A stretch of 64,000 nucleotides of DNA from an uncultured Candidatus Rokubacteria bacterium (GCA_963826115.1 CAWGVS010000010.1:32001-96000), one strand, 5' to 3'; shown: positions 28,299-43,620, counted from the stretch's first letter. The notes: generated from the sequence alone by a model not told the origin. A program made the numbers and translations.

Positions 28299-28380
28299 CC
28301 TTCGAGGATGCCAAAGGAGTCGCCGACGGCCAAAGCTTATCGGCTCTCGCCGCCGTCGACCCGAGGACGCCCGCGCGCGG

Positions 28381-28568: not shown

Positions 28569-28584
28569 TGGCACTCGGGTTGCT
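28569..28584 (+). promoter_or_regulatory. sigma-54 promoter candidate for the patatin/heme-enzyme unit
   Basis: TGGCACTCGGGTTGCT matches consensus TGGCAC-N5-TTGCW; about 150 bp after dyad element 2 and about 50 bp before the patatin GTG. Confidence 0.75.
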
Positions 28585-28635
28585 CCGCCGATCCACGCGG
28601 TCGCGTCGTTCCGAGACCGTTCCGGAGGAGGCGCT

Positions 28636-29751
28636 GTGCCGTTCGGCGTCGAGGGAGTCGAGTCCGGCGTGGGCCTCGCGCTGTCGGGGGGAGGGTTCCG
28701 CGCGACCCTGTTCCACTGCGGCGCGCTCTGGCGTCTCGACGAGCTCGGCTTCCTCCCGAAGCTCGACCGCGTCTCGAGCGTGTCCGGCGGCTCGATCACG
28801 GCGGGCGTCCTGGCGACGCGCTGGACGGAGCTGCGCTTCGCCGGCGCCACGGGCGCGAACCTCCGGGAGACGGTCATCGCGCCGCTGCGGGCGTTCTGCC
28901 ACCGCACCGTGGACGTCCCGGCCATCGGGATCGGGACCCTCCTGCCGGGCCGGCGTCCGGCCGACCTGCTCCAGGCCGCGTACGCGGAGCACCTCTTCGG
29001 GGCGGCCGCGCTCCACGACCTGCCCGACCGCCCGCGCTTCGTGTTCAACGCGACGAACCTCGCGACGGGGGTGAGCTTCCGGTTCTCGAAGCCGTACGCC
29101 GGCGACTACCGGATCGGCCTCATCCCGAAGCCGACGTTCCCGGTCGCGCTCGCGGTGACCGCGTCGAGCGCCTTCCCGCCGTTCCTCTCGCCGGTCGTCG
29201 TCCGGCCGGACCCCGACGCGTTCCAGCGAGTTCCGGGCGCCGACCTCTTCGACCAGGTCGCGTACCGCGAGCGGCTGCTCCTGACCGACGGCGGCGTCTA
29301 CGACAACCTCGGGCTCGAGACCGTGTGGAACCGCTACGACACGGTGCTGACGAGCGACGCCGGCGCGCCGTTCGGCCTGGCGCTCGACCCCGAGACGTCG
29401 TGGCACGGTCAGGTGCTCCGCGCGCTCGACATCGCGACCAACCAGGCGCGCGCGCTTCGCAAGCGGATCCTGATCGACGACTACACGCGGGGCGTGCGGA
29501 AGGGCGCGTACTGGGGCATCGCCACCGACATCCGGGCGTACGGGCTCGCCGACGCGCTGCCGGTGTTGCCGGCGCGCATCGCGGAGCTCGCTGCCCTGCG
29601 CACCCGGCTCGACGACTTCTCCGACGTGGAACAGGGCCGGCTCATCAACTGGGGATACGCCGTGTGCGACGCCGCCATGCGCCGGCACGTCACCGCCGGC
29701 GCCGGCCCCGCCCCGGCATGGCCCGTGCCCGAGCTTCGGCTGGACCAGTAG
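28636..29751 (+). CDS. Patatin-like phospholipase
   Basis: LALSGGGFRA, VSSVSGGS, ASSAFP, DGGVYDNLG; GGAGGAGG RBS. Confidence 0.92.
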   Translation: MPFGVEGVESGVGLALSGGGFRATLFHCGALWRLDELGFLPKLDRVSSVSGGSITAGVLATRWTELRFAGATGANLRETVIAPLRAFCHRTVDVPAIGIGTLLPGRRPADLLQAAYAEHLFGAAALHDLPDRPRFVFNATNLATGVSFRFSKPYAGDYRIGLIPKPTFPVALAVTASSAFPPFLSPVVVRPDPDAFQRVPGADLFDQVAYRERLLLTDGGVYDNLGLETVWNRYDTVLTSDAGAPFGLALDPETSWHGQVLRALDIATNQARALRKRILIDDYTRGVRKGAYWGIATDIRAYGLADALPVLPARIAELAALRTRLDDFSDVEQGRLINWGYAVCDAAMRRHVTAGAGPAPAWPVPELRLDQ

Positions 29752-29898
29752 GCAGCCGCAGGAACCGGAGGACCGTCTGATGAAGCGCTCCGCGTCCCGC
29801 CCGTCTTCCCGCGCGCCTCGATCGCCCGCGCCCCCGGCTCCCGCCGCCGGTCCCGGCCGGCTCCGCCGGATGTGCAGCATCCGCGAGGGCTCGCCGCG

Positions 29899-31269
29899 GT
29901 GAGCGGGGCGCGGGCCCTCGTACTCGGCGTGCTCCTGTGCGCCGTCCTCCTCGGGGCGGCGCCCGGGCGGGCGCAGGACGCCGATGCGGACAAGCGGGCG
30001 GCCCTCAAGCGCATCGCGGGCTTCGCCGCGCTCATCGACAAGACGGACGTCGAGATCCGGCGGAAGCAGTGGGAGTACCGGCTCCTCCTGTCGTTCGCGC
30101 TCGCCGTCGGCATCCTCGGCGCGGCGAGCGCGGCGGCCCAGAAGTTCGAGGGCACGAAGGCGCGGGTCGCCACGCTCGCCATGGGCGTGCTGATCTCCGC
30201 CCTGACCTTCTCGACGAACACGCTCTTCCCGGACGACCACCGGGCGCTCAAGCGCAACGTCGAGCGGGCGCGCCACGAGCGCGACGTGGGCAAGGTGGTG
30301 GCCGACTCCGCGGACCTGTCGGTCAGCACCGAGGCGCTCCTCCAGCTCGAGCAGCAGGTGCAGGCGCGGTACGCGGCGATCGTCTCCGCGCTGGGGCCGG
30401 ACTCGAAGCAGGCGTCGCTCGCGCCGGCGAGCGCGTGGGCGGCGGCGCCGGGAGCCCCGGAATCCCCGGAGTGCCAGCGCTGGCCGTCGAGCGGCGGCCT
30501 GTGCTTCTCCGGGATCGGCCGCAGCGCGTACCCCGAGCAGGCGCGGCAGAACGCGCTCCAGATCGCGGTCGACCAGGCCTCCCAGTACGTCGCGCGGCAG
30601 GTCGGGAGCCAGCGCCCGCCGGAGGCGTTCCGGGACTACGTCGAGCGGTTCGCGCGCGTGGAGGAGGTGTACCCGAGCCGGGACCTCCGCGCCGGCCGGG
30701 AGTTCGGGTACGTCGCCATCCTCACGCTGAACTCGCGCTTCGCCGACCCGAAGGCCGTGGCCGCCTCGAGCATCGAGCCCCGGACGATCACCTCCGGCGA
30801 CCCCGTGCTCATCCGCGGCTGGCGCGCTCCGCCGGGCGGCCGCCTGCCGGGCGACCCCGCCGGCGAGGCCTGGTTCCGGATCGAGGGACAGGATGTGCGC
30901 GCCGACCGCGGCGCGGACGGGGCGAGCTCGTGGGTGTTCGGGAAGCGTGGCGGCGCGCGGGGCCCTCTCCAGCACGGCGACCTCGTCTCGCTGCGCGGCG
31001 TGTGGGGCGATCCCTACGTCACCGTCGAGCCCGACGGGCGGCTCCTCGCGTACCGCGGTCCCTCGGAGGCCGCGCTCTTCCGCCTCGAGCGGCGCGGCGG
31101 TGGGGAGCTGGTCCGCGAGGGCGACGCCTTTGCGCTCGTGGATCCCCGGAGCGGGCGCGTCCTCCGGGCGGACCGCGGACGCCTGGTGATGAGGCCTCCG
31201 GAGGATGCCGCGTCCACGCGCTTCGCGGCCGTGCTCGTGCCGCGCATCGGCACGGCTGCGAAGTACTGA
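29899..31269 (+). CDS. Exported/membrane multidomain hypothetical protein
   Basis: Signal-like N-terminus, two internal TM helices, a GIGRS..ARQNAL segment, and a beta-rich C-terminus (GDLVSLR..YVTVE..LFRLER) resembling fascin/beta-trefoil repeats. Confidence 0.6.
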   Translation: MSGARALVLGVLLCAVLLGAAPGRAQDADADKRAALKRIAGFAALIDKTDVEIRRKQWEYRLLLSFALAVGILGAASAAAQKFEGTKARVATLAMGVLISALTFSTNTLFPDDHRALKRNVERARHERDVGKVVADSADLSVSTEALLQLEQQVQARYAAIVSALGPDSKQASLAPASAWAAAPGAPESPECQRWPSSGGLCFSGIGRSAYPEQARQNALQIAVDQASQYVARQVGSQRPPEAFRDYVERFARVEEVYPSRDLRAGREFGYVAILTLNSRFADPKAVAASSIEPRTITSGDPVLIRGWRAPPGGRLPGDPAGEAWFRIEGQDVRADRGADGASSWVFGKRGGARGPLQHGDLVSLRGVWGDPYVTVEPDGRLLAYRGPSEAALFRLERRGGGELVREGDAFALVDPRSGRVLRADRGRLVMRPPEDAASTRFAAVLVPRIGTAAKY

Positions 31270-31305
31270 ACCCGCGCTGCCCAGGCCCGAGGGAGGGAGA
31301 ACGCG

Positions 31306-31755
31306 ATGGCGACGACCAAGACCCGGAAGGGCCCGTGCAATCCGGCCTGCACCACGATCGTCCGGTTCATGACCGACAAGGAGGTCCCGCCCAACGTCGG
31401 GGTCAGCATCCCCGGCTACAAGTCAGTGGACGGCTACCGCCACCTGAACGTCTTCGTCCGCTTCAGCCAGGAGACGTCGGGCGAGCCGCCAGTGGACCTG
31501 GGCGTGCTCTTCGCCTTCGACGTCCAGGGGACCCTGAGCGCCCGCCGCTACGTGAACCTCGAGGCGAACGTGCCGGGCCCCCAGAGCACGAACTTCATCG
31601 AGGTGTCGGGGAGCGGCTCGTGGCACGGCAGCCCGCACAACATCAGCAGCTACATGGCGCGGCTGCCGGTCATGGGGCCCTTCGCATGGGTGGTCGTCTA
31701 CAACCGCGCGCTGGTCAAGCGCGTCGTGACCGTCTGGGGCTACCTCGTCTCGTGA
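31306..31755 (+). CDS. Hypothetical beta-rich protein
   Basis: 149 aa with good codon pattern and a GGAGGGAG RBS. Confidence 0.7.
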   Translation: MATTKTRKGPCNPACTTIVRFMTDKEVPPNVGVSIPGYKSVDGYRHLNVFVRFSQETSGEPPVDLGVLFAFDVQGTLSARRYVNLEANVPGPQSTNFIEVSGSGSWHGSPHNISSYMARLPVMGPFAWVVVYNRALVKRVVTVWGYLVS

Positions 31756-31790
31756 GTGCCCCGCGTCCCGTTCCCGACAAGGAGACCCTC

Positions 31791-34256
31791 ATGGCCGACC
31801 ACGGTGTGTCCGGGCGTCGGGTGTGGCTGTCCGCGTGCGCCGCCCTCCTCCTGCTGCTCGGCGGGTGCGGGAAGGACGCGCCCCGGCCGGGCACGGTCCT
31901 CGACGAGGCCAGCCGCGCGGGCCGCACCGCGGCGTCGTTCCCGGCGGCGGCCGAGGACTACTTCCACGACATGGACGGCGGCGGCGCCTTGACCCGTGAG
32001 GAGATCCAGGGCCGCAACACCTGGCTCGTGTGGACGGGCGGCAACGACCGCTTCTGGGACACGATCGGCGTCTCGAGCTTCGGGCTCTTCGACCTGCTGA
32101 AGATCCTCTCGTCGCACCCCGACAAGAGCGTCGCGCACCTGAACCGGAGCACCCGCTGGCAGTACCTCGGCCTGGTCAACGAGCCCTGCTTCGACAAGCC
32201 GACCGGCCCGGACCCCCAACGCCATGGCCTGTGGCTCGACAAGCGCCGCGCCGACTGCCCGCCCGACCCGTTCGAGAACGAGGCGCGGTACCCGGGCGTT
32301 CGGATCGGGGCGCGCGGCGCCAACATGCCCCTCGGCTCCTACTACGGGTACGCGTCGGGGATCGTCGGCCTTCGGCTGTTCCCGAACCCGGACTTCGACG
32401 AAGCGGCCGCGAAGCGGTGGGATCCCGTCCGCTACTACGCGGACGAGTCGTACTACGACTCGAAGGACCTCGTGCGGCCGTACCGGGTCGGGATGTCGTG
32501 CGCGTTCTGCCACGTCGGCCCCAACCCCATCCGCCCGCCCGCCGACCCCGAGAACCCCAAGTGGGAGAACCTCGCGTCCAACGTCGGCGCCCAGTACTAC
32601 TGGGTCGACCGCATCTTCAGCTGGAAGAACGACAAGTCCAACTACATGTTCCAGCTGCTCCACACCTCCCGCCCCGGCGCCCTCGACACGTCGCTGGTGT
32701 CGACCGACTACATCAACAACCCCCGCACCATGAACGCCGTGTACCTCCTCGGGCCGCGGCTCCAGGTCGGGAAGCGCTGGGGGAAGGAGACCCTCGCCGG
32801 CGGCGGTCTGAGCAACGCCCAGCTGAACGACTACGTCAAGGACGGGCCGCTGACGCAGTTCTTCGAGAAGCCCGGCACGGTGTGGACGCCCCGCGTCCTG
32901 AAGGACGGCTCGGACTCGGTGGGCGCGCTGGGGGCGCTGAACCGCGTCTACCTGAACATCGGTCTGTTCAGCGAGGAGTGGATGCTCCACTTCAACGCGC
33001 TCGTCGGCGGCAAGCCCATCAGCCCCATCGAGATCGCCGTCGCCCGCAAGAACTCCGCCTACTGGCTGGCGACCGAGGCCCAGACGCCGAGCCTCGCGCT
33101 CTTCTTCCTCCGCACGGCCGTGCCGCACCGCCTGAAGGATGCGCCGGGCGGGAGCGCCTACCAGACCAAGAACCAGGCGGTGCTCCGCCGCGGGAAGATC
33201 GCGTTCGCCGAGCGCTGTGCCCGCTGCCACTCGAGCAAGACGCCCGAGCCCGCCGTCGGCGTCGACCCCGGCGGCTGCGCGGGCTCCGGCTACCTGACCT
33301 GCTGGACGCGGTACTGGGAGTCGACCCAGACCGACGCCTACAAGCAGGCCATGCGCCGGATCGTCCTGGCCGACGACTTTCTCGACAACAACTACCTGTC
33401 CACCGAGCTGCGCGTGCCGGCGACCCTCCTCGAGACCAACGCGTGCAGCCCGCTCGCGACGAACGCGATCGCCGGCAACATCTGGGACAATTTCTCGTCG
33501 CAGTCCTACAAGGACCTCCCGTCGGTCGGGACCATCACCGTCCACGACCCCTTCACCGGCCAGCCGCGACCCTACCAGATGCCGGCGGGCGGCCGGGGCT
33601 ACACGCGGCCGGCGTCGCTCGTCAGCGTGTGGTCGACCGCCCCCTTCTTCCAGAACAACAGCCTCGGGCGGTTCGAGTGGAGCCCGTCGGTCGAGGCCCG
33701 GATGCGCTCGTTTCAGGACTCGGTCGAGAAGCTGCTCTGGCCGGAGCGGCGCCTCAAGGATGCGGTGCTCGGGGACAAGGTGCCGGGCCGCATCGATCGG
33801 ACGACGGACCGGAGCTACATCCGCATCGCCGCCGGCTACCTGCCGGACGAGCTCCAGCCGCTGCTCGGCCGGGCCAACCGCTACGCGCCGTGGCTCTTCG
33901 GCGCGGGCGGCATCCGGATCGGACCCATTCCGCCCGGCACGCCGGTGAACCTGATCGCCAACCTGGACCTGATGCCGGACGGGGCCGACCTGGCCGGGCG
34001 CGCCGCGCACGTGCGGAAGCTCCTGCCGCTGCTGCACGAGCTCGCGCAGGCCCTCAAGAAGGGCGGCGACTCCGCGACCGACGACGAGCTGCGCCGGAGC
34101 TTCGCCCCCGTGGTGCCGATGCTGCTCGAGATGAGCAAGTGTCCGGACTTCGTCGTCGACCGCGGCCACTACTTCGGCACGAGCCAGTTCAAGGAGGAGC
34201 CGGGCTTGAGCGACGAGGACAAGACCGCCCTGATCGAGTTCATGAAGACCTTCTAG
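31791..34256 (+). CDS. Large diheme c-type cytochrome lipoprotein (RoxA/CcP-MauG superfamily-like)
   Basis: AAGGAG RBS; lipobox LLLGGC; CAFCH and CARCH; GYTRPASLVSVWSTAPFFQNNS; C-terminal GHYFG..LSDEDKTALIEFMKTF. Confidence 0.8.
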   Translation: MADHGVSGRRVWLSACAALLLLLGGCGKDAPRPGTVLDEASRAGRTAASFPAAAEDYFHDMDGGGALTREEIQGRNTWLVWTGGNDRFWDTIGVSSFGLFDLLKILSSHPDKSVAHLNRSTRWQYLGLVNEPCFDKPTGPDPQRHGLWLDKRRADCPPDPFENEARYPGVRIGARGANMPLGSYYGYASGIVGLRLFPNPDFDEAAAKRWDPVRYYADESYYDSKDLVRPYRVGMSCAFCHVGPNPIRPPADPENPKWENLASNVGAQYYWVDRIFSWKNDKSNYMFQLLHTSRPGALDTSLVSTDYINNPRTMNAVYLLGPRLQVGKRWGKETLAGGGLSNAQLNDYVKDGPLTQFFEKPGTVWTPRVLKDGSDSVGALGALNRVYLNIGLFSEEWMLHFNALVGGKPISPIEIAVARKNSAYWLATEAQTPSLALFFLRTAVPHRLKDAPGGSAYQTKNQAVLRRGKIAFAERCARCHSSKTPEPAVGVDPGGCAGSGYLTCWTRYWESTQTDAYKQAMRRIVLADDFLDNNYLSTELRVPATLLETNACSPLATNAIAGNIWDNFSSQSYKDLPSVGTITVHDPFTGQPRPYQMPAGGRGYTRPASLVSVWSTAPFFQNNSLGRFEWSPSVEARMRSFQDSVEKLLWPERRLKDAVLGDKVPGRIDRTTDRSYIRIAAGYLPDELQPLLGRANRYAPWLFGAGGIRIGPIPPGTPVNLIANLDLMPDGADLAGRAAHVRKLLPLLHELAQALKKGGDSATDDELRRSFAPVVPMLLEMSKCPDFVVDRGHYFGTSQFKEEPGLSDEDKTALIEFMKTF

Positions 34257-34271
34257 CCGGCGCGGACTCCC

Positions 34272-36167
34272 ATGGACCCCGTGGCATCGCGTTCCGCGGA
34301 TTGCGAGTACGTGGTGGTCGGCTCGGGCGCCGGCGGCGGCACGCTCGCCGCCCGGCTGGCCGAGGCGGGTCGCACCGTCGTGCTGCTCGAGGCCGGCGGG
34401 GACCCGCGCCGCCTGGCCGGCGGCGACCCCCTCGACCCGGGCGGCAATCGCCTGCCCGACTCGTACGACGTCCCGGCCTTCCACGCGTTCGCGTCGGAGA
34501 ACGAGGCGCTGGCGTGGAACTTCTTCGTCCGCCACTACGAGAGCGACGCGCGGCAGCGCGAGGACCCGAAGTACCGGGAGACGTGGGAGGGCAGGAAGGT
34601 CGACGGCGTCCTGTACCCGCGCGCGGCGGCGCTCGGCGGTTGCACCGCGCACAACGCGCTGATCTTCGTCTCCCCCCACGACGCCGACTGGGACGGCATC
34701 GCCGCGCTAACCGGCGACCCCTCGTGGAGCGCGGCACGGATGCGCCGGTACTTCCAGCGGCTCGAGAACTGCCGCCACCGCCCGGTGTATCGCGTCCTGG
34801 CCCGGCTGGGCCTCGACCCCACGGGGCATGGCTGGAACGGCTGGCTCCACACCGAGCGCGCGGACATCCGGCCGGTCTTCCGCGACCGGGCCCTGAAGAA
34901 GGTGATGAAGCGGTCGGCGCGCCAGGCGCTCCGCGACGTCGCCCCGCCGTTCACGCGGCTCTGGTGGCTGCTCCAGGGCAAGGCCGACCCGAACGACTGG
35001 CGGCTCGTGCGGAACAACGCCGTGGGGATCGGCTACCTGCCGCACACCACGCGCGAGCACGCGCGGATGGGCGCGCGCGAGCGGGTCCTGAGCGTGGCCG
35101 CCCGCCATCCCGACCGGCTGCGGGTCGAGCTGAACGCCCTGGCGACGCGCGTGCTCTTCGACGCGGAGCAGCGGGCGGTCGGCGTCGAGTACCTGTCGGG
35201 CGAGCGGCTCTACCGGGCGCACGGCGATCCGAGCCGCGAGGCGGGGGAGCGCCGCGAGGTCCGCGCGTCGGCGGAGGTCATCCTGGCGGGGGGCGCGTTC
35301 AACACGCCCCAGCTCCTCATGCTGTCGGGCGTCGGCCCCCCCGAGGTCCTGGAGCGCCACGGCGTCCCCGTCCGGGTGGCGCTTCCCGGCGTCGGCCGGA
35401 ACCTCCAGGACCGCTACGAGATCGGCGTGGTGAGCCGCATGGCCTTCGACCGCTGGAAGGTGCTGGAGGGGGCCCGTTTCGCGCGCGGGGACCCGCAATA
35501 CCGCGAGTGGGCGAACCGCCGGCGCGGCGTGTACGCGAGCAACGGCGCGATCCTCGGGGCGATCGCGCGCTCGTCCCCGGCGCGCCCGCTCCCGGACCTC
35601 TACTGCTTCGGGCTCCTGGCGCGGTTCGAGGGCTATTTTCCCGGGTACTCGAAGCCCATCGCCGAGCGCCAGGACTACCTCACGTGGGCCATCCTCAAGG
35701 CGCACACCGCCAACCGCGCGGGCGAGGTGACGCTCCGCTCCGCCGATCCGCGGGAGCCGCCCCACGTCAACTTCCGGTACTTCGACGAGGGGAGCGACCG
35801 GGCGGGGGAGGACCTCGAGTCGGTCGTCTCGGGGATCCGCCTCGCCCGGCGCATCAACGCGCGGCTCGAGCGGGCGGGGCTCGTCGCCGAGGAGGAAGAG
35901 CCCGGCGCGCGCGTCCAGTCGGACGGCGAGCTGCGCGACTACGTGCGGGCCCGGGCGTGGGGTCACCACGCCGCCTGCACGTGCCCGATCGGCCCGCGGG
36001 AGCGCGGCGGCGTGCTGACCTCCGACTTCCGCGTGCACGGCACCCGGGGGCTCCGCGTGGTCGACGCGTCCGTGTTCCCGAGGATCCCCGGCTTCTTTCC
36101 GGTCAGCGCGATCTACATGGTCGCCGAGAAGGCGGCCGACGACATCCTCGCCCCGGCGGGCCGGTGA
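34272..36167 (+). CDS. GMC-family flavin oxidoreductase
   Basis: VVGSGAGG, RAAALGGCTAHN, GGAFNTPQLLMLSGVG, VGRNLQD, WGHHAACTC, LRVVDASVFP. Confidence 0.92.
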   Translation: MDPVASRSADCEYVVVGSGAGGGTLAARLAEAGRTVVLLEAGGDPRRLAGGDPLDPGGNRLPDSYDVPAFHAFASENEALAWNFFVRHYESDARQREDPKYRETWEGRKVDGVLYPRAAALGGCTAHNALIFVSPHDADWDGIAALTGDPSWSAARMRRYFQRLENCRHRPVYRVLARLGLDPTGHGWNGWLHTERADIRPVFRDRALKKVMKRSARQALRDVAPPFTRLWWLLQGKADPNDWRLVRNNAVGIGYLPHTTREHARMGARERVLSVAARHPDRLRVELNALATRVLFDAEQRAVGVEYLSGERLYRAHGDPSREAGERREVRASAEVILAGGAFNTPQLLMLSGVGPPEVLERHGVPVRVALPGVGRNLQDRYEIGVVSRMAFDRWKVLEGARFARGDPQYREWANRRRGVYASNGAILGAIARSSPARPLPDLYCFGLLARFEGYFPGYSKPIAERQDYLTWAILKAHTANRAGEVTLRSADPREPPHVNFRYFDEGSDRAGEDLESVVSGIRLARRINARLERAGLVAEEEEPGARVQSDGELRDYVRARAWGHHAACTCPIGPRERGGVLTSDFRVHGTRGLRVVDASVFPRIPGFFPVSAIYMVAEKAADDILAPAGR

Positions 36168-36209
36168 CGGCGCGGCGCGGGCGGTCAGACCACAGAGGAG
36201 GCTGCCGAG

Positions 36210-36641
36210 ATGGGATATGACGTGCCCCAGCTCTTGACGATGTCCCAGAAGGAGCTCGATGACCTGTTCACGCGAAGCGCGCCGGGCGACATCCCCGACG
36301 GCGAGGCCGAGGGGACCGCGATCGTGGCCCCGGGGACGACCTACAGCGGCGACATCGCCAAGATCCTCAACCACTTCGCCTGGCAGGGGAAGACCTTCGA
36401 CGCGGCGAAGGGGCAGCTGAAGAACCGGATCCTGCCGTTCGGGCTCAACGCCATCATCGCGCGGATCTACAAGGAGCCGAGCTGGCTCGACGGCAAGGAG
36501 TGCATCGTCCTCGACTACTCGGACACCTCGCTGGTGGCGCAGTGGATCCGCGACGAGATCCGCCAGATCGGGCCCGGGCTCTACCTGGGCAAGGTCTACT
36601 GGAACAAGAAGCGCCTCATCGATTTCGCGCTCAAGTTCTGA
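36210..36641 (+). CDS. Conserved hypothetical protein
   Basis: 143 aa; MSQKELDDLF, WQGKTF, LDYS, IRDEIRQI.PGLYLG; GAGGAGG RBS. Confidence 0.8.
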   Translation: MGYDVPQLLTMSQKELDDLFTRSAPGDIPDGEAEGTAIVAPGTTYSGDIAKILNHFAWQGKTFDAAKGQLKNRILPFGLNAIIARIYKEPSWLDGKECIVLDYSDTSLVAQWIRDEIRQIGPGLYLGKVYWNKKRLIDFALKF

Positions 36642-36648
36642 GGGTCCC

Positions 36649-37950
36649 GTGACCCCGCAATCGAGCTTCGCGGTGGTGGCGCCGGTCGAGACGGGCCGGG
36701 TGGAGGCCCTGCGGACCCTCCTCGCCACCATGAACCACCGGCCGGGGGTGGTGGACCCGGAGAACGCGCTCGTGCCGTTCGGCCGGTTCGAGCAGATCCA
36801 CTTCGCCCGCTTCGTCGTCCTCGACGACCCGACCGCCGACGACATCGCGGCCCACGGCGTCACGCCGCCTCGCTTTCCCGTGGCACTCGCCTTCGTCGGG
36901 GATTGCGACGGGCCCGCCGAGGAGTGTCTCGCCGACCTCGCGGCGCGGGCTGGGCCGGGCCTCCGGCGCATCTTCGCGCACTGCCGCGGGCTGCCGGCGG
37001 ACGGAGACCTCGGCGCCTGGCTCAGGGCGCATGACGTCCCGGCGGCGACGCACTACGTGAACTGGGTGGGGCGCACGGTGGGGCAGGCTCGCGAGGAGAG
37101 CGCCCTCCGCCGGGCGCTCGAGGCGTACCTGGACGCGAACGCCCGCGCGCTCGCGTCGCGTGCGCCCGCCCAGGTCTTCGACGACCTGCGGGCCTTCGTC
37201 GCGCGGGAGCGCCAGGCCGGCCGCCTGAGCCTGACGCCCCCGGCACCGACCCCGGGCGCCTGGCGCCTCCGGAAACTCGTCCACCTGGTCGGCGTGCCCC
37301 TCGTCCTGCTGCTCGCCGCCCCGCTCCTCCTCGTGTACCTCCCGATCTTCGCGATCGTCCTCCGGCGCCGCGAGCGGTCCGACCCGGAGATCGCGCCGCG
37401 CCCGGATCCCGAGCACGTCAAGCGCCTCGCCGACCTCGAGGACCACGACATCACCAACCAGTTCAGCGCCATGGGCACGCTGAAGCCGGGCCTGTTCCGC
37501 CGGACGACGCTGGTCTTCGTGCTCTGGATCGTCGCCTACACGACGCGGCACATCTACACGCACGGGTTCCTCGCGCGGGTCGGGACGATCCACTTCGCGC
37601 GGTGGACCTTCCTGGACGGCAAGCGCCGGCTCCTGTTCGCCAGCAACTACGACGGGAGCCTGGAGAGCTACATGGACGACTTCATCAACAAGGTGGCCTT
37701 CGGGCTGAACGTCGTGTTCACGAACGGCGTGGGCTACCCGCGCACGCGCTGGCTCGCGCTCGACGGCGCCAAGGACGAGCAGAAGTTCAAGTACTTCATC
37801 CGCCGGCACGAGCTGGCCACCGAGGTCTGGTACAACGCGAACCCCGGTCTCACGGCCGTCGAGCTCGAGCGGAACGGCCGCATCCGCGCGGGCCTCGAGC
37901 GGCCGACGATGACCGACGCCGAGGCGCGCGAGTGGCTGCGGCTCCTGTGA
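36649..37950 (+). CDS. DyP-associated hypothetical protein with a duplicated IHFAR domain and a central TM segment
   Basis: QIHFARFVVL..DCDG and TIHFARWTFL..SNYDGSLESYMDDF flank a hydrophobic helix. Confidence 0.75.
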   Translation: MTPQSSFAVVAPVETGRVEALRTLLATMNHRPGVVDPENALVPFGRFEQIHFARFVVLDDPTADDIAAHGVTPPRFPVALAFVGDCDGPAEECLADLAARAGPGLRRIFAHCRGLPADGDLGAWLRAHDVPAATHYVNWVGRTVGQAREESALRRALEAYLDANARALASRAPAQVFDDLRAFVARERQAGRLSLTPPAPTPGAWRLRKLVHLVGVPLVLLLAAPLLLVYLPIFAIVLRRRERSDPEIAPRPDPEHVKRLADLEDHDITNQFSAMGTLKPGLFRRTTLVFVLWIVAYTTRHIYTHGFLARVGTIHFARWTFLDGKRRLLFASNYDGSLESYMDDFINKVAFGLNVVFTNGVGYPRTRWLALDGAKDEQKFKYFIRRHELATEVWYNANPGLTAVELERNGRIRAGLERPTMTDAEAREWLRLL

Positions 37951-37963
37951 GGGAGGCCCGACG

Positions 37964-39454
37964 ATGACAGGGGACGCGGTCGACTACGGCGACGTCCAGG
38001 GGCTCGTGCGCTACGCCTACGCGCACATGACCGAGGCGCGCTTCCTCCTCGTCCGCGTGGCGGACCCCGCGGCCGCGCGCGCGTGGCTGCGCGCCGCGCC
38101 CGTCACGACGGCCGCCCGGTCGGCGCCGCGGCCGACCACGGCGCTCCAGGTGGCCTTCACGCGCGAGGGGCTCGAGGCGCTCGGCGTGCCCGCCGGCGTC
38201 CTCCAGGGGTTCTCCGCGGAGTTCCAGTCGGGGATGGCCGGAGAGGAGAGCCGGTCCCGCCGCCTCGGCGACGTCGGGGTCAGCAGCCCGGCCGAGTGGC
38301 AGTGGGGCGGGCCCGGGGCGGTGCCGCACGCCGTCGTGATGCTGTACGCCGAGCTCGGCCGGCTGGAGCCCTGGACGTCGTCGGTGACCCGCGACCCCTG
38401 GAACGCGGCATTCCGGGTGCTGCCCAGCCCGCCGCCGATCCCGCTCGATCGCCTGGAGCCGTTCGGCTTCGTCGACGGCATCAGCCAGCCCGTCCTCGAC
38501 TGGGCCCAGCGCCGCATCGTCGACGGGCGCGACCAGATCGAGTACGGGAACGTCCTGTCGCTCGGCGAGGTCCTGCTCGGCTACCCGAACGAGTACGGCA
38601 AGGTCACCGACCGCCCGCTGATCGACGGCGGGAACGCGCGGGGCGCCGGCCTCCCGGCCGCTACCGGCGCGCCCGGTCAGGCCGACCTGGGGCTGAACGG
38701 CAGCTATCTCGTCGTCCGCCAGCTCCGCCAGGACGTCGACGGCTTCTGGCAGTTCCTGCGCCGGCAGGGGAACGGCGACCCGCAGGCCGGTCAGGTGCTC
38801 GCGGAGGCCATGGTGGGCCGCGCGCTCACCGGCGAGCCGCTGCTCGCCGCCGGCGGGCCGCCCATCGCGGGCGTCGACGCCCGCACGCCCGACGAGGTCC
38901 GGTACAACCAGTTCACCTTCGACGCCGACGCGAACGGCACCCGGTGCCCGATCGGCGCCCACATCCGGCGGGCGAACCCGCGGAACGCCGACGTACCCGG
39001 CCGGCCGTCCGGGCTCCTCGGCCGGCTGGTCCGCACCCTCGGCTTCGGCCGGAAGAGCTTCCGCGAGGACGCGGTCGCCTCGGCCCGTTTCCACCGCCTC
39101 CTGCGGCGCGGGCGCGCGTACGGCCCCTGGCCGCCGGGAACAGCCGGCGACGGCGAGCGCGGCATCTACTTCATCGCGCTCAACGGGAACATCGCGCGCC
39201 AGTTCGAGTTCGTGCAGAGCGCCTGGATGATGGGCACCAAGTTCGACGGGCTCGGCGAGGAGAGCGACCCCCTCATCGGCGCGCGCGACCCCCTGCCGGG
39301 GTGCCCGGTCACGAGCGTGTTCTCGCTCCCCCAGGCCGGCGGGCTCCGGCGCCGCGTCACGGGCCTCCCGCGGTTCGTCACGGTCCGGGGCGGCGCGTAC
39401 TTCTTCCTGCCGGGGCTGCGCGCGCTCCGCTACCTCACGAGCTTCGGGAGCTGA
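37964..39454 (+). CDS. Dye-decolorizing (DyP-type) peroxidase
   Basis: DVQGLV, EPFGFVDGISQP (GxxDG), CPIGAHIRRANPR, LLRRGRAYG, RQFEFVQ. Confidence 0.9.
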   Translation: MTGDAVDYGDVQGLVRYAYAHMTEARFLLVRVADPAAARAWLRAAPVTTAARSAPRPTTALQVAFTREGLEALGVPAGVLQGFSAEFQSGMAGEESRSRRLGDVGVSSPAEWQWGGPGAVPHAVVMLYAELGRLEPWTSSVTRDPWNAAFRVLPSPPPIPLDRLEPFGFVDGISQPVLDWAQRRIVDGRDQIEYGNVLSLGEVLLGYPNEYGKVTDRPLIDGGNARGAGLPAATGAPGQADLGLNGSYLVVRQLRQDVDGFWQFLRRQGNGDPQAGQVLAEAMVGRALTGEPLLAAGGPPIAGVDARTPDEVRYNQFTFDADANGTRCPIGAHIRRANPRNADVPGRPSGLLGRLVRTLGFGRKSFREDAVASARFHRLLRRGRAYGPWPPGTAGDGERGIYFIALNGNIARQFEFVQSAWMMGTKFDGLGEESDPLIGARDPLPGCPVTSVFSLPQAGGLRRRVTGLPRFVTVRGGAYFFLPGLRALRYLTSFGS

Positions 39455-39518
39455 CCATCCGTACCGGCGATGGGGCCCTGGCACTCCGGACGGCGCGGCC
39501 GAGACGGGAGAGAGCCGG

Positions 39519-40754
39519 GTGCTGCTGAAGAGGTTCCACGACGCGGCCCTCGAGCTGATGAAGCTGGAGCGCCGCGTCGATCCGTTCTTCCGCCCGCCGC
39601 TCGACGCCATCTTCCAGGAGCCCGTGGCCTGGTTCCTCCAGGTCCTGATCAACCGCCGCCGCCCGGCCGAGGGGCTCGCGCTCGCCGAGGAGAGGCTTCT
39701 GCCCGGCGAGGACGCCTTTCTCGACTCGATCATCCGGGACATGGCCGCCTACATGCGCGCGCACTACGCGCCGGGCGGGTTCCAGCGCGCGGGGAACACG
39801 AAGACGCACGGCGTGCTCCGCGGCGAGTTCACCGTGCGTCCCGACGTGCCGGTCGAGTGGCGGCACGGCGTTCTCGCCGAGCCCCGGACCTTCCGGGCCT
39901 GGGTCCGGTTCGCCGGGCCCGGACCGGCGAGCCCACCAGACATCGAGGAGGTCGGCGTCCTCAGCATCGGCGTCAAGCTGATGGGCGTACCGGGCCCGAA
40001 GCTCCTCGACGACGAGCGCTTCACGCAGGACTTCACGGGCATCAGCGCCCCCACCTTCACGACGCCCGACGTGCGCGAGAACGCGAAGCTCCAGGCCGCG
40101 AGTCTTCGCGGAACGCCGCTCTTCTACTTCATCAACCCGTTCGACTCCCACCTGCTGGACGGGCTCATGCAGGGGCTGTGGGCGCGGACGCAGACCAGTC
40201 CGCTCGAGACCCCGTACTGGGGCTGCGTGCCCTTCCTCCTCGGCGAGGGGCGCGCCATGCAGTACTCCTTCCGCCCGCGGCTGACGACGCGGAGCCGGGT
40301 GCCGCGCCTGCCGCGGCGGCCGCCCGACCACTACCTCCGCGAGGCCATGGCGGCCACGCTCGCGCGGCAGGACGTCGAGTTCGACTTCCTGATCCAGATC
40401 CAGACCGACGCCCACCGCATGCCCATCGAGCACGCGTCGGTCCGCTGGCCGGAGCGGCTCTCGCGCCCGGTGCCGGTGGCGACGCTGCGGCTCCCGCGCC
40501 AGACGTTCGACTCCCCCGCTCAGCTCGCGTTCGCCCACAACCTCTCCTTCAATCCCTGGCACACGGTCGCCGCCCACCGGCCCCTCGGGAACCAGAACCG
40601 GGGCCGCCGGCGCCTCTACGTGGAGCTCTCGCGGCTCCGGCAGTCCATGAACGCCACGCCGCACGTGGAGCCGACCGGCGACGAGATGTTCGAGCATGCC
40701 GCGCGCGGGTCCGACGGGCCGCCCGACCGGACGCGTCCACGGAGTCGAGCGTGA
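39519..40754 (+). CDS. Catalase-fold heme protein with Asn in place of the distal His
   Basis: RAGNTKTHG where RxxHxKxHG is expected; WVRF, MPIEHASVRW, LSFNPWH, RPLGNQNRGRRRLY (proximal Tyr). Confidence 0.85.
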   Translation: MLLKRFHDAALELMKLERRVDPFFRPPLDAIFQEPVAWFLQVLINRRRPAEGLALAEERLLPGEDAFLDSIIRDMAAYMRAHYAPGGFQRAGNTKTHGVLRGEFTVRPDVPVEWRHGVLAEPRTFRAWVRFAGPGPASPPDIEEVGVLSIGVKLMGVPGPKLLDDERFTQDFTGISAPTFTTPDVRENAKLQAASLRGTPLFYFINPFDSHLLDGLMQGLWARTQTSPLETPYWGCVPFLLGEGRAMQYSFRPRLTTRSRVPRLPRRPPDHYLREAMAATLARQDVEFDFLIQIQTDAHRMPIEHASVRWPERLSRPVPVATLRLPRQTFDSPAQLAFAHNLSFNPWHTVAAHRPLGNQNRGRRRLYVELSRLRQSMNATPHVEPTGDEMFEHAARGSDGPPDRTRPRSRA

Positions 40755-43609
40755 CGCGGCGGGGGCCCGCGATCGGGCTTCTCCTCGGGGCTGCGCTCCT
40801 TGCGGGCGGGTGCGACGACGGGCCGGGTGACGTGGAAGCCTGTCTCCGCGCCGCGTGGGCCGGCATCCGCTCGATCGCCGAGGACCGCGCCCACCGGTTC
40901 CTCGGCAAGGTGGGGGAGGACCGCGCCCGGTGCCGCGGCGGCGCCCGGGCGGTTGCGCGGCGGCCCGGGCCGTGGGTGGACTGGCCGAACTACTGGGCCA
41001 CGGGCGACGCCGGCAGCCGAGCCGCGCGGTGGGGCGACCGCACGCGGTTCCTCCGCCCGGACGGGCGCGGTCTCGACGGCGCGCTCATCGACCTCGAGTA
41101 CCAGCGCGTCGAGCTCCTGCGCTTCAACCTCCTGGACAACAGCGGCACCTATCCCGACTACGCCCGCGGCCGCGACGGGGTCGCGGGACCCGCGCTTCGC
41201 GTCTGGCCCGCGATGCGGTTGCCGCCGGAGCACCCGAGCTACGCGGCGGTGGGCGGCGCCGGCGAGCAGCGCTGCGCCGGCGCGCTGATCCGGCATCGCG
41301 CGCTGACCGGGATCTGCAACGACCTCCGCAACCCGCTCATGGGATCGGCGGGCATGCCGTTCGCGCGGAACGTCGAGTTCGAGGCGACCTTCCCGGACCT
41401 CGGCCGGACCGAGCTCGCCCGGAACCGCCACGGCGGGCGCCTCGGTCTCCTCCGGCCCGACCCGCAGGTGGTGAGCCGCCGCCTTCTGAGCCGAGAGACG
41501 GCGTCGCCCGACACGTGCCACGAGGGCCGCGGCCTCCCTGGCCACGCGGCCGCGGCGCGGTGCCCCTACAAGGCCGCGCCCACGCTCAACGTCCTGGCGG
41601 CGTTCTGGATCCAGTTCATGACGCACGACTGGTTCTCCCACCTGACCGAGGGCCGGAACGCGACGGCGACGATCTCCACGGGCTGCGCGGTCGCCCGTGC
41701 CGGCGGCGTGGAGCGCCCGCTGACGGCCACCGACGTGGCCGGGCTCGGGTGCCGCCCCGCGGACCGGGCCGGGGCGGCGGCGGTCGACCAGGCCGCCGAC
41801 CCGCCGGTCTTCGAGCATCGTGGACAGACGCGCGTGGCCCGCGCCTACCGGACCACGCGCAACACCGTCACCGCGTGGTGGGACGCCTCCCAGCTCTACG
41901 GCCACGACGAGACGTCGCGGCGGCGCGTGAAGCGCGACCCCGAGGATCCGGCGAAGCTCCGCCTCCTGGTGCTGGGCGGCCGCGTGGCCGCGGGCGACCG
42001 GCTCGGCTACCTGCCGGTCTTCGAGACCGGGGATCCGATCAACCCGCTCTGGGCGGGGCAGGAGGCGACCGCGTTCCCCGACAACTGGAGCATCGGCCTC
42101 TCCTTCTTCCACAACGTGTTCGCGCGCGAGCACAACCTCGTGGTCGACGCGTTCCGGGCGGCGGGGCGCGCCACGCCCGACGCCGACTCGGGCCTCCGGG
42201 ATCCGGCGAAGCCCGCGCGGGTTCTCCGCTACCGCGACCTGTCGGACGACGAGCTGTTCGAGGTGGCGCGCCTCGTGATCGCGGCGGAGATCGCGAAGAT
42301 CCACACCGTCGAGTGGACGCCGCAGCTCCTCTACGACGAGCCCCTGCGCCTCGCGATGTCGGCGAACTGGTCGGGCCTCCTGGCCGACGACGCCCGCGCC
42401 CGGGCGGCGCTCGCCGGCGTCCTCCGCGCGCTCGCCGGGTCCCGGGACGCCGACCGCGCCGCCGCGTGGTACTCGGTCTTCGCCTCGGGCCCCGGGATCG
42501 TCGGGCTCGGCAGCCGCGTCTACGCCGACGGTCCGGTCGGCACGGTGGACGTCTGGAGCCTCGCGAACTCCGAGCACGTGAACGGCGGGACCCACCACTT
42601 CGGCTCGCCGTTCAACTTCCCCGAGGAATTCGTCACCGTCTACCGCCTGCACCCGATGCTCCCGGACCTCCTCGAGCTCCGGACGCTCGCGCCGGACCCG
42701 AACGTCGTCCGCCTCCGGATCCCGCTCCGCGACACGGTCCGCGTCGGGGCGACGCCCGCGATGCGGGAGCTCGGCCTCGCGACCTGGGCCCTGTCCCTGG
42801 GCCGCCAGCGCCTGGGCCGGCTCGCGCTTCGGAACCACCCGCGATTCCTGCAGGCCCTCGACCTGCCGGGCGCCAGCGGGAGCGGGAAGCTCGACGTCGT
42901 CGCCCTCGACCTCATCCGGGATCGCGAGCGCGGCGTGCCCCGCTTCAACGAGTTCCGCCGCCAGTACGGCCTCCGGCAGCTGACCAGCTTCGAGGACTTC
43001 GTGGACCGCACGCTTCCCCCGGGCGCGCCCGACCGCGTCGAGCAAGAGCGGCTGGTCGGGGTCCTGCGCGAAGTGTACGGACAGCACCGGTGCGACGCGG
43101 GGAAGCCGATCACCACCGCCCAGGTGAACGCGGACGGCACGCCCATCGACGACTGCCTGGGGCATCCCGACGGCAGCCCGGTCGACAACGTGGAGGATCT
43201 CGACACCGTGGTCGGCTGGCTCGCGGAGCCCACGCGGCCCCACGGGTTCGCGATCTCCGAGACGCAGTTCCAGGTGTTCGTCCTGAACGCCTCGCGGCGT
43301 CTCTTCAGCGACCGCTTCTTCACCTCGAGCTTCCGGCCCGAGTTCTACGGCCACCTCGGCCTCCGCTGGGTCGCCGACAACGGTCCCGACGGGCCGATGC
43401 AGGAGCGCGCCGCGCCGGGGGCGCCCGCGGCCCGAGCGGTGGATGTCTCTCCGCTGAAGCGGGTGCTCCTGCGGACGATCCCGGAGCTCGCGCCCGAGCT
43501 CGCCCACGTGGTCAACGTCTTCGACCCGTGGGCGCGCGCCAGAGCGGACTACTACTCCGTGGCCTGGCGGCCCCGGCCCGACGCCGAGGCCGACGAGGCC
43601 TTCCGCTAG
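40751..43609 (+). CDS. Peroxidase-cyclooxygenase superfamily lipoprotein, fatty-acid alpha-dioxygenase-like
   Basis: Lipobox LLAGGC; FWIQFMTHDW, WWDASQLYG, IAKIHTVEWT, EEFVTVYRLH, DRERGVPRFNEFRR, ASRRLFSDRFFT. Confidence 0.88.
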   Translation: MTRRGPAIGLLLGAALLAGGCDDGPGDVEACLRAAWAGIRSIAEDRAHRFLGKVGEDRARCRGGARAVARRPGPWVDWPNYWATGDAGSRAARWGDRTRFLRPDGRGLDGALIDLEYQRVELLRFNLLDNSGTYPDYARGRDGVAGPALRVWPAMRLPPEHPSYAAVGGAGEQRCAGALIRHRALTGICNDLRNPLMGSAGMPFARNVEFEATFPDLGRTELARNRHGGRLGLLRPDPQVVSRRLLSRETASPDTCHEGRGLPGHAAAARCPYKAAPTLNVLAAFWIQFMTHDWFSHLTEGRNATATISTGCAVARAGGVERPLTATDVAGLGCRPADRAGAAAVDQAADPPVFEHRGQTRVARAYRTTRNTVTAWWDASQLYGHDETSRRRVKRDPEDPAKLRLLVLGGRVAAGDRLGYLPVFETGDPINPLWAGQEATAFPDNWSIGLSFFHNVFAREHNLVVDAFRAAGRATPDADSGLRDPAKPARVLRYRDLSDDELFEVARLVIAAEIAKIHTVEWTPQLLYDEPLRLAMSANWSGLLADDARARAALAGVLRALAGSRDADRAAAWYSVFASGPGIVGLGSRVYADGPVGTVDVWSLANSEHVNGGTHHFGSPFNFPEEFVTVYRLHPMLPDLLELRTLAPDPNVVRLRIPLRDTVRVGATPAMRELGLATWALSLGRQRLGRLALRNHPRFLQALDLPGASGSGKLDVVALDLIRDRERGVPRFNEFRRQYGLRQLTSFEDFVDRTLPPGAPDRVEQERLVGVLREVYGQHRCDAGKPITTAQVNADGTPIDDCLGHPDGSPVDNVEDLDTVVGWLAEPTRPHGFAISETQFQVFVLNASRRLFSDRFFTSSFRPEFYGHLGLRWVADNGPDGPMQERAAPGAPAARAVDVSPLKRVLLRTIPELAPELAHVVNVFDPWARARADYYSVAWRPRPDAEADEAFR

Positions 43610-43620
43610 GAGGGAACGCC

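Follow-up and report, generated by a model that had tools for sequence, protein, structure and literature searches.

What might haem proteins of four unrelated folds be doing together in one bacterial gene cluster that begins with a patatin-like phospholipase? The question is raised by a 64,000-nucleotide stretch of DNA from an uncultured Candidatus Rokubacteria bacterium (GCA_963826115.1, CAWGVS010000010.1:32001-96000), referred to here as the window. A first-pass annotation listed eight genes in this cluster, namely a patatin, a dihaem c-type cytochrome lipoprotein, a GMC flavoenzyme, two hypothetical genes, a DyP peroxidase, a catalase-fold protein and a peroxidase-cyclooxygenase lipoprotein. 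It took them for a putative extracytoplasmic assembly line oxidising fatty acids or, alternatively, for an H2O2-coupled system attacking a hydrophobic polymer. The eight genes do lie in that order, with short gaps or an overlap, on the + strand at 28636-43609, and correspond to g1 and g4-g10 of the present numbering. Two genes between the patatin and the cytochrome (g2 and g3) had been passed over, and g11 and g12 follow downstream. The four unrelated haem folds are likewise borne out: dihaem cytochrome c in g4, DyP in g8, a catalase fold in the predicted model of g9, and the peroxidase-cyclooxygenase fold in g10.

The cluster is best understood by comparison with other genomes. A six-gene core, g4-g9, is conserved across many phyla, and the window carries a lineage-specific, extended version of it. 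In Methylomirabilota/Rokubacteria the core has gained the lipoprotein g10, the patatin g1 and a few genes without a family. The patatin and the alpha-dioxygenase encoded by g10 are accessories and not part of the core.

A six-gene core conserved across phyla

Related loci were collected with a profile of g7 in one genome per species, which gave at least 597 pattern matches and at least 520 confirmed loci with a g7 relative. The survey sample consists of the best 80 of these, with flanks of up to 10 kb; 53 of them have full 10-kb flanks, and incomplete flanks produce false absences in the 80-locus counts. Gene presence was scored by tblastn of the window's proteins, with at least 30% identity and coverage required in the 53-locus set. 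The sample spreads over about ten phyla (Acidobacteriota 40 loci, Pseudomonadota 18, Rokubacteria/Methylomirabilota 7, Verrucomicrobiota 5, Nitrospirota 4, Myxococcota 2, other single loci 4), and the nearest loci in it belong to metagenome-assembled genomes of Methylomirabilota/Rokubacteria, at 77-85% identity.

Both g7 and g8 are present throughout (80/80 loci and 53/53 with full flanks), followed by g6 (77/80; 50/53), g9 (68/80; 50/53), g4 (63/80; 42/53) and g5 (51/80; 37/53). The other genes of the window are found in far fewer loci: g10 in 12/80 (10/53), a g1-type patatin in 5/80 (4/53), g11 in 4/80 (4/53), all of them in the window's phylum, g2 in 2/80 (2/53), and g3 and g12 in one locus each (1/80; 1/53). 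Clustering of 3972 open reading frames (ORFs) from the 80 loci, with antisense shadow ORFs removed, produced no further family in more than seven loci and no transporter, polymer-binding, terpene or carotenoid gene conserved beside the core. The per-gene counts, together with the lack of any further recurrent family, therefore define g4-g9 as the conserved unit. The earlier expectation that a patatin would recur in homologous clusters largely fails at these counts.

Gene order within the core is variable, with 26 different arrangements among the 53 full-flank loci, and g8 always lies directly after g7. The catalase-like gene g9 shifts place and strand from locus to locus but stays within the cluster. 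A distinct variant occurs in Nitrospira and Betaproteobacteria (L038, L039, L053, L054, L074, L075, L077). Its g6 relative has about 300 residues and a lipoprotein signal, and its g4 relative is only 25-27% identical. The GMC gene is missing; most of the loci have, in front of g7, a gene coding for about 650-850 aa (647 in both L054 and L075) in its stead. A Pfam search with this gene of about 650 aa found no family.

The g7-DyP-catalase-like unit

The best PDB match of g8, an unambiguous one by phmmer (2.9e-38), is 8re3, ahead of fungal DyPs, AnaPX and DyP2. This structure is the class C/V DyP of Deinococcus radiodurans, DrDyP (PMC10820274, cited here, like the other published precedents, from excerpts). 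The same text gives the distal Asp of a GXXDG motif, a proximal His and a distal Arg as the defining residues of the family. In g8 these align to DrDyP as Asp171, His333 and Arg382, and all three are invariant in 16 homologues. Curated family models score the protein on either side of their cutoffs, with 22.5 bits for Pfam Dyp_perox_C (cutoff 20), 21.4 bits for DyP_N (cutoff 27.5) and 70.5 bits for NCBIfam TIGR01413 (cutoff 100.5). DrDyP is thus the nearest solved relative, and like g8 it keeps the catalytic Asp/His/Arg and has no export signal; the cytoplasm is regarded as the location of class C DyPs (PMC10820274). The two differ in setting. The g8 gene always follows g7, has other core genes near it and is sometimes fused, a context that does not appear in the excerpted text of PMC10820274, where the physiological role and natural substrates of DyPs are described as unclear and class C as unexplored. 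Two acidobacterial loci (L009 at 28-1900 and L013 at 1289-3161) also carry, no more than a few kb away from the cluster, an encapsulin (Linocin_M18) together with a short DyP of class-B type, and hence two different DyP systems side by side.

Searches with g7, by sequence or by family profile, found no match in Pfam, NCBIfam or PDB. The family comprises 3241 clusters at 50% identity (E<=1e-3) and has no Pfam model. The protein is an internal duplication, residues 46-159 aligning to about 310-418 (hhalign probability 90.5%, E 1.4e-6). Between the two homologous domains lies one 34-residue hydrophobic segment (207-240) with Arg/Lys on both sides, which we infer from the sequence to anchor the protein to the membrane from the cytoplasmic side, as a hairpin or in a monotopic manner. 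An ESM Atlas model of a g7 homologue (predicted template modelling score, pTM, 0.90) resembles in structure the first 400 or so residues of clusters of 'Dyp-type peroxidase' proteins of about 1000 aa and of P450-domain proteins of about 915 aa. The idea that g7 is a diverged DyP is not supported, as hhalign gives a probability of 0.2% against g8 and aligns only a 15-column piece over the GXXDG region. The same comparison of g6 with g7 gives a probability of 0.1%. The g6 protein has no Pfam family even by family profile, and its sole PDB match, a designed coiled coil, was judged spurious; its invariant residues are W58, G60, K61, D102, Y103 and R114-D-E-I-R118.

Seventeen longer proteins containing g7 were found and mapped with BLASTP, and eight of them (P0241, P0242, P0244, P0246, in which the DyP is only partial, and P0253-P0256) hold g7, DyP and a catalase-like part in that order and are 32-64% identical to the proteins of the window. 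The rest are for the most part g7-DyP proteins, and P0257 consists, by Pfam, of a P450, the C-terminal half of g7 and a DyP. Several fusions represent 3-13 member sequences or sit on contigs of 73-185 kb. Comparable genes occur on finished plasmids, pNL2 of Novosphingobium aromaticivorans DSM 12444 (L081, 6829-11160) and a plasmid of Sulfitobacter pontiacus (L082, 6775-11637). These giant genes of 1443 and 1620 aa, annotated as a DyP-domain protein and a cytochrome P450, hold g7 from about residue 213 on (the hydrophobic segment and the C-domain), followed by DyP. Because g7 and g8 are always adjacent and natural fusions exist, g7, g8 and g9 form one functional unit. The fusions also mean that the conserved partner of g9 is the DyP unit and not g10.

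Several further observations concern these proteins. On pNL2 a SARP regulator gene immediately precedes the giant gene, and genes for an acyl-CoA dehydrogenase and a MaoC dehydratase also lie upstream of it; in total, 50 plasmid records have a match of this kind. P0288 (692 aa) is a g7 homologue with an N-terminal domain of the endonuclease/exonuclease/phosphatase family, a family that includes sphingomyelinase-type phospholipases. A parallel may be drawn with the fungal oxylipin fusions of a dioxygenase and a cytochrome P450 (PMC13049297, excerpts). They join a haem enzyme that forms or uses hydroperoxides to a second haem enzyme, a principle echoed by the P450-g7C-DyP and g7-DyP-catalase-like proteins; the haem folds and the domain order differ.

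The third member of the unit, g9, has no match in Pfam, NCBIfam or PDB by its own sequence, and the few homologues with a name are called 'catalase family protein' by NCBI. Its family gave 5234 matches at E<=1e-3 among 8000 scored candidates, and the best 120 listed are all at least 67% identical. An AlphaFold model built from 30 sequences has a pTM of 0.80 and a mean predicted local distance difference test score (pLDDT) of 73.7. The top Foldseek matches of this model in PDB are coral allene oxide synthase (1u5u, 2.7e-11) and the 33-kDa catalase-related protein of M. avium (3e4w, 3.8e-11, TM 0.53/0.69). In total 177 matches reach E<=1e-3; catalase-related proteins occupy the first four places, and nearly all the other rows listed are catalases. 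Residues T96-H97, R363 and Y367 are invariant in 30 homologues, with haem-site roles assigned by motif only. The Thr-His is presumably equivalent to the distal pair of coral allene oxide synthase (catalases have Val before the distal His), and Arg-x3-Tyr we take to be the proximal motif of catalases. In the fusion P0253 the g9-like part (39% identical to g9, E 1.6e-61) reaches 28.4 bits against Pfam Catalase, where the cutoff is 25. A catalase fold is accepted for g9 because of the predicted model and these fused homologues.

The coral enzyme (1u5u, 3dy5) and 3e4w are thus the best structural matches of the g9 model (E of about 3e-11, TM 0.52-0.69), and they resemble g9 in small size, in the Thr-His and in Arg-x3-Tyr. 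They lack the extra helical N-terminus of about 90 residues predicted for g9. A further difference from the coral enzyme is that relatives of g9 are fused to DyP and g7, not to a lipoxygenase.

A RoxA-like cytochrome and a GMC enzyme

The two haem-binding CXXCH motifs of g4, CAFCH at 237 and CARCH at 476, are 239 residues apart and invariant in 25 homologues. Of these homologues, 15 match the Pfam family RoxA-like_Cyt-c (PF21419; best 1.1e-6), and in Atlas clusters that look like a g4 homologue the same family is found in 23-100% of members. Searched against PDB, a profile of the 25 homologues finds haem-site similarity only, plus 4b2n at E 0.084. This entry is RoxA, which cleaves poly(cis-1,4-isoprene) (PMC4496055, excerpts). 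Two dihaem proteins of P. aeruginosa, PA2077 and PA2078, are described in the same source as RoxA-related, periplasmic and twice the size of a canonical cytochrome c peroxidase (CCP). PA2077 is a fatty-acid 10S-dioxygenase and PA2078 a 7,10-diol synthase, and their haem motifs are spaced by 245 and 235 residues, as against 199 in RoxA (PMC4496055).

On these grounds g4 appears to be distantly RoxA/FadCcp-like, within the CCP-MauG superfamily. It shares with RoxA and with PA2077/PA2078 ('FadCcp') the exported dihaem c-type architecture and a size about twice that of a canonical CCP. The motif spacing is close to that of the two Pseudomonas proteins, to which g4 is likened by description and not by sequence alignment. 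It differs from them in being longer (821 aa) and a lipoprotein. The tandem of PA2077 and PA2078 has a counterpart in eight acidobacterial loci with tandem g4-type cytochromes of about 815 and 725 aa (L008, L010, L016, L018, L022, L027, L036, L057); in L020, two extra RoxA-like cytochromes lie between g6 and g7. In the excerpts of PMC4496055 the Pseudomonas operon consists of the two dihaem genes, and no DyP, g7 or catalase-like partner is mentioned.

The g5 protein matches GMC_oxred_C (7.8e-31, 107.9 bits), GMC_oxred_N (2e-19, 70.7 bits) and NAD_binding_8 (25.4 bits) in Pfam, and its N-terminal VVVGSGAGGG carries the dinucleotide-binding GxGxxG. Among solved structures, choline oxidases come nearest (5.8e-40), and fatty acid photodecarboxylase is matched at 3e-32; g5 reaches no equivalog cutoff in NCBIfam.

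A predicted accessory alpha-dioxygenase

The product of g10 matches Pfam An_peroxidase (1e-61, 209.6 bits), and its best PDB matches are the alpha-dioxygenases of rice (4kvj, 3.7e-57) and Arabidopsis (4hhr, 2.8e-48), with lactoperoxidase far behind (1.4e-8). The residues given as essential in the rice enzyme OsDOX are H157, H311, T316, F375, Y379, H382, F552 and R559 (PMC8720084, excerpts). By alignment these have counterparts in g10 as the distal H292 (H157 in rice) and proximal H634 (H382), the catalytic Y631 (Y379), the carboxylate-binding H518 (H311) and R850, the alpha-carbon-positioning T523 (T316) and the stacking residues F627 (F375) and F840 (F552); R849/R850 align to R558/R559 and W522 to W315. 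With the exception of F840, the alpha-dioxygenase residues are invariant in six homologues at 59-75% identity. The same six homologues also share a Cys-rich N-terminal extension of about 260 aa and a lipoprotein-like N-terminus. The sequence of g10 is therefore that of a predicted fatty-acid alpha-dioxygenase. Its catalytic and carboxylate-binding residues are all those of the plant and cyanobacterial enzymes (4kvj, 4hhr; CalDOX and LepDOX, PMC8720084, excerpts). It is unlike them in its length, about 950 aa as against about 620-650 aa, and in having a lipoprotein signal, the Cys-rich extension and a multi-haem cluster as its setting.

The distribution of g10 was followed on a tree of g7 with 81 rows (the 80 loci and the window; quick search, LG+G4). 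The 12 rows with g10 require three changes on this tree, and g10 is associated with the core in three lineages. FAD_binding_4 oxidases are found in seven loci, including all four that have g10 but no GMC gene.

In the window the stop codon of g9 overlaps the start of g10. Compared with the five closest relatives, L001-L005, the window has an inversion of g9 by itself (about 39470-40700), both flanks being collinear; the inversion gives rise to this overlap, which is therefore special to this genome. In those relatives g9 is convergent with g8, divergent from g10 and on the opposite strand from g10. A search for inverted repeats at the inversion breakpoints found weak GC-rich matches only, none of them clear. 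In L006, g10 is present and g9 absent. Conversely, 41 of the 50 g9-bearing loci with full flanks have no g10, and all 50 have g7-g8. A precedent for a g9-g10 pair exists in Nostoc punctiforme, which has a linoleate 10S-dioxygenase and a catalase-related 10S-hydroperoxide lyase (PMC13049297, excerpts). There, as in the window, where the two genes abut, a bacterial haem dioxygenase of the cyclooxygenase superfamily is encoded with a small catalase-related haemoprotein. The likeness ends with the type of dioxygenase, since g10 is of the alpha type and not a 10S-dioxygenase, and with the pairing itself, which is not conserved among the loci surveyed; the excerpted account of PMC13049297 names no DyP, g7, GMC enzyme or dihaem cytochrome.

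Patatin and other lipase-like neighbours

Patatins are marked by an oxyanion motif G-G-x-R/K, a nucleophile elbow x-S-x-G and a catalytic Asp in D-G-G/A. The g1 protein matches Pfam Patatin (PF01734) at 4.1e-21 and 76.5 bits (cutoff 27.7) over profile positions 1-190 of 191, and it has GGGFR at 18-22, SVSGG at 48-52, with the first Gly replaced by Ser, and DGG at 218-220. Four of the five loci with a g1-type patatin are close relatives in the window's phylum, and the fifth, L012, is a weak match at 24%. Among the six closest relatives with full flanks, four have it.

Lipase-like genes of other kinds recur beside the core. A Pfam census covered 115 of 351 near ORFs and the remaining loci were searched by BLAST with the lipases found as seeds, so the counts are lower bounds, only seeded families being counted beyond the census. 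In all, 34 lipase-like ORFs of five Pfam families were found in at least 27 of the 80 loci. They comprise short patatins in 8 loci, long patatins of about 900-1000 aa in 11 (three loci are common to the two lists), Tle1-like phospholipase domains in 5, Abhydrolase_1 in 7, ABHD18 in 4 and DUF900 in 1. In 17 loci such a gene lies inside the core or at most 300 bp from it. The lipase-bearing loci span six to seven phyla, and a label for any lipase-like neighbour (28 rows, the window included) requires at least 18 changes on the g7 tree.

Cellular location and possible function

Export signals are confined to g4 (lipobox LGGC), g10 (AGGC, near-canonical) and g2, which has hydrophobic windows at 6-35 (an N-terminal signal or hydrophobic segment) and 69-90. 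Neither a signal peptide nor a hydrophobic segment occurs in g1, g5, g6, g8 or g9. The description of the system as extracytoplasmic therefore holds for g4, g10 and g2 and fails for these five proteins.

The architecture of the cluster is well supported, whereas its function is inferred. The best reading of the cluster, although we put it slightly short of an even chance, is a membrane-associated system that oxygenates lipids and processes lipid hydroperoxides. It is drawn from the alpha-dioxygenase residues of g10, the fold of g9 resembling allene oxide synthase, the traits that g4 has in common with FadCcp, the hydrophobic segment by which g7 would sit in the membrane, and the varied lipases. 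A lipase would free fatty acids, which in the window would be the task of the patatin and elsewhere of a long patatin, a Tle1-like enzyme or an alpha/beta-hydrolase. The lipoprotein g10, on the periplasmic side of the membrane, would convert fatty acids to 2-hydroperoxy fatty acids, which would give rise to Cn-1 aldehydes or 2-hydroxy acids. The periplasmic g4 could act as a second oxygenase or as a hydroperoxide-converting enzyme, as PA2077 and PA2078 do in Pseudomonas. At the cytoplasmic face, g7 would tether the DyP and the catalase-like protein to the membrane, where lipid hydroperoxides might be reduced or rearranged. The GMC enzyme g5 could oxidise the resulting alcohol or hydroxy product, or supply the peroxide that activates the haem enzymes. 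The purpose might be signalling by oxylipins, lipid repair or catabolism.

A number of points weigh against a system of lipid oxygenation. As the patatin is predicted to be cytoplasmic and g10 periplasmic, the fatty acid would need to cross the membrane. Moreover, 2-hydroperoxy acids decay spontaneously and need no lyase. The assignments of the individual proteins have their own weaknesses: the g9 model is only moderately confident in its pLDDT, and the g9 profile reaches 1u5u at a non-significant E of 0.4; g4 scores 5.4e-8 and 32.5 bits against the NCBIfam model of dihaem cytochrome c peroxidase, far below the cutoff of 150, and the window's own g4 has no PF21419 match at E<=1; and Pfam and PDB searches gave no fold match for g6 or g7. 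No seeded lipase family was found in 53 of the 80 loci and no g10 in 68. Alpha/beta-hydrolases are common genes and need not be lipases, 6 of the 34 lipase-like ORFs lie more than 4 kb from the core, and the comparison of near with far sequence is a weak control, since the far flanks total only 0.35 Mb and the near sequence, cores included, 1.12 Mb. Finally, the cluster is also found in nitrite-oxidising Nitrospira. This speaks against a catabolic use of external lipids but leaves an internal role untouched.

A rival explanation is a general defence against peroxide stress, in which g4 in the periplasm and DyP and g9 in the cytoplasm would detoxify H2O2 and organic peroxides and the lipid-related neighbours would be incidental. 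All three haem families include peroxide-removing enzymes, and both the weak match of g4 to dihaem cytochrome c peroxidase and the catalase name given to g9 homologues would suit such a role. So would a distribution over many phyla of aerobic soil bacteria, with autotrophic Nitrospira among the carriers, and the encapsulin-DyP pair beside the cluster in L009 and L013. Defence is nevertheless an unlikely explanation. It would leave the g7 anchor, the P450 fusions, the recurrent lipases and the alpha-dioxygenase unexplained, the GMC oxidoreductase has no obvious part in detoxification, g4 is about twice as large as a canonical CCP and belongs to a family matching models of RoxA-like oxygenases, and the nearest folds to g9 are catalase relatives that rearrange hydroperoxides rather than true catalases. 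The linear pathway first proposed for the locus, in which the patatin feeds the alpha-dioxygenase and the catalase-like enzyme, with DyP, takes up the 2-hydroperoxides while the other genes lend support, is rather improbable as the functional unit. The full set of alpha-dioxygenase residues in g10, the g9/g10 overlap, the Nostoc precedent (PMC13049297, excerpts) and the patatin of close relatives all favour it. On the other side, most g9 loci with full flanks have no g10 and all keep g7-g8, the 17 longer g7 proteins include fusions of g9 to g7-DyP and none to g10, the two genes are on opposite strands in the five closest relatives, L006 has g10 without g9, and g1-type patatins are rare. Moreover, g9 has no export signal, and g10 is a lipoprotein. 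What stands of the earlier proposal is a plausible link to fatty acids or lipids, through the residues of g10, the fold of g9 and the five lipase families; the line from patatin through alpha-dioxygenase to catalase-like enzyme is not a conserved unit.

Two further explanations draw on the resemblance of g4 to RoxA. The cleavage of a polyisoprene by RoxA (PMC4496055, excerpts) and the listing of beta-carotene among DyP substrates (PMC10820274, excerpts) would fit a system aimed at isoprenoid lipids and not at acyl chains, with polyprenols, carotenoids, quinones or hopanoid precursors as targets of the RoxA-like cytochrome and the DyP. The relationship of g8 to long fungal-type DyPs, and a membrane anchor suited to a lipid-soluble substrate, agree with this. 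We consider it very improbable, since the haem-motif spacing of g4 fits the fatty-acid enzymes and not RoxA, and the recurrent neighbours are ester hydrolases and an alpha-dioxygenase, with no terpene or carotenoid gene conserved nearby. The chance is slimmest for the secreted alternative of the first-pass annotation, an H2O2-coupled attack on a hydrophobic polymer such as lignin, rubber or cutin, with the GMC enzyme feeding the DyP and the RoxA-like enzyme cleaving. GMC and DyP enzymes are a classic lignin-active pairing, RoxA is a rubber oxygenase and the carriers are mainly soil bacteria. Most of the proteins, however, bear no export signals (GMC, DyP, g6, g7 and g9 have no signal peptide), and class C DyPs are placed in the cytoplasm (PMC10820274, excerpts). 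The cluster is moreover carried by chemolithoautotrophic Nitrospira, and the core has neither a transporter nor a polymer-binding gene as a conserved neighbour.

The system of lipid oxygenation and hydroperoxide processing thus remains the preferred reading. A more specific proposal, possible but doubtful, is that the core of g6, g7, DyP and catalase-like protein, usually with a g4-type cytochrome and a GMC enzyme, would be a multi-haem machine of many phyla, held on the inner membrane by g7, that makes or processes lipid hydroperoxides (bacterial oxylipins).

Layout of the locus and its surroundings

Genes were called by frame analysis of third-position G+C (GC3), with start codons picked at frame changes. 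At a G+C content of about 73%, as in the window, raw ORF lists contain a great many false frames. Across 28.6-48.3 kb GC3 favours one frame, always on the + strand, and this gives twelve co-directional genes, g1-g12 (Table 1). Neighbouring genes are separated by 7-120 nt, apart from g9 and g10, which overlap by 4 nt.

Table 1. Genes of the cluster and other features of the window, with the basis of each assignment
Feature	Position	Strand	Basis	Remarks
g1, patatin-like phospholipase, 371 aa	28636-29751	+	Pfam Patatin	Accessory, lineage-specific
g2, 465 aa, two hydrophobic segments	29872-31269	+	GC3 frame	Lineage-specific
g3, 149 aa	31306-31755	+	GC3 frame	Lineage-specific
g4, dihaem c-type cytochrome lipoprotein, 821 aa	31791-34256	+	CXXCH x2, lipobox	Core
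g5, GMC-family flavoprotein oxidoreductase, 631 aa	34272-36167	+	Pfam GMC_oxred_N/C	Core, least constant
g6, conserved protein, 143 aa	36210-36641	+	Conservation	Core, usually directly 5' of g7
g7, two-domain protein, 433 aa	36649-37950	+	Conservation	Core, proposed membrane anchor/DyP partner
g8, DyP-type haem peroxidase, long class C/V, 496 aa	37964-39454	+	PDB match 8re3	Core
g9, catalase-related haemoprotein candidate, 411 aa	39519-40754	+	Predicted model	Core, position and strand variable
g10, predicted fatty-acid alpha-dioxygenase, probable lipoprotein, 952 aa	40751-43609	+	An_peroxidase	Accessory
g11, 203 aa	43621-44232	+	GC3 frame	After g10 in close relatives
g12, membrane/TPR protein, 1334 aa	44332-48336	+	Pfam TPR_11 1.3e-6	
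Cytochrome bd oxidase subunits I and II, adjoining a multicopper oxidase/cupredoxin protein	11544-15879			
PhyH-family dioxygenase, FN3-domain protein, subtilase (S8), metallo-beta-lactamase-fold protein	22148-27865	+		Upstream of the cluster
Putative small gene (198-aa ORF)	27894-28490	-	Codon-position G+C	Within the 770-nt gap 5' of the patatin
PAP2 phosphatase, LPG_synthase_TM, DAGK/YegS-type lipid kinase, EEP-family protein	54003-58311	both		About 6 kb 3' of g12
GvpL/GvpF gas-vesicle gene	63222-63998			At the window end

The g12 gene may belong to the same transcription unit, yet it is not conserved with the cluster. No family match in Pfam or NCBIfam was found for g2, g3 or g11. A scan of 27600-47500 for promoters and terminators was uninformative, with no promoter-like and two terminator-like sites against 3.6 expected by chance. 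None of the 12 proteins matched the PADLOC models of anti-phage defence, and scans of the whole window found neither tRNAs nor Rfam matches at the gathering threshold.

The putative small gene on the minus strand before the patatin has no Pfam family and could be a divergently transcribed regulator. Of the genes upstream on the cluster's own strand, the subtilase and the metallo-beta-lactamase-fold gene are likewise upstream of the cluster in L003 and L006. The membrane-lipid genes beyond g12 are recorded as neighbours, and no link to the cluster is claimed.

Significance

Neither the cluster nor g6 or g7 is described in the open-access papers and preprints searched, which offer only the Nostoc, Pseudomonas and alpha-dioxygenase precedents. 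The core has a real chance of being a new system. The cluster occurs in cultured strains, among them Paraburkholderia sacchari LMG 19450, Rhodanobacter sp. Soil772 and Acidobacteriaceae bacterium KBS 89, and because such carriers exist the question of its role is now a defined experiment. In at least 520 loci a class C/V DyP stands in a fixed genomic partnership, always beside g7 and usually with a catalase-related protein. If the proposed role in lipid hydroperoxide metabolism is true, the cytoplasmic class C/V DyPs would gain a first physiological substrate and partner proteins, and g6 and g7 would be two new protein families. The very few bacterial oxylipin pathways known so far would be joined by another, and the g7 family, with its more than 3000 clusters at 50% identity, would receive a function.

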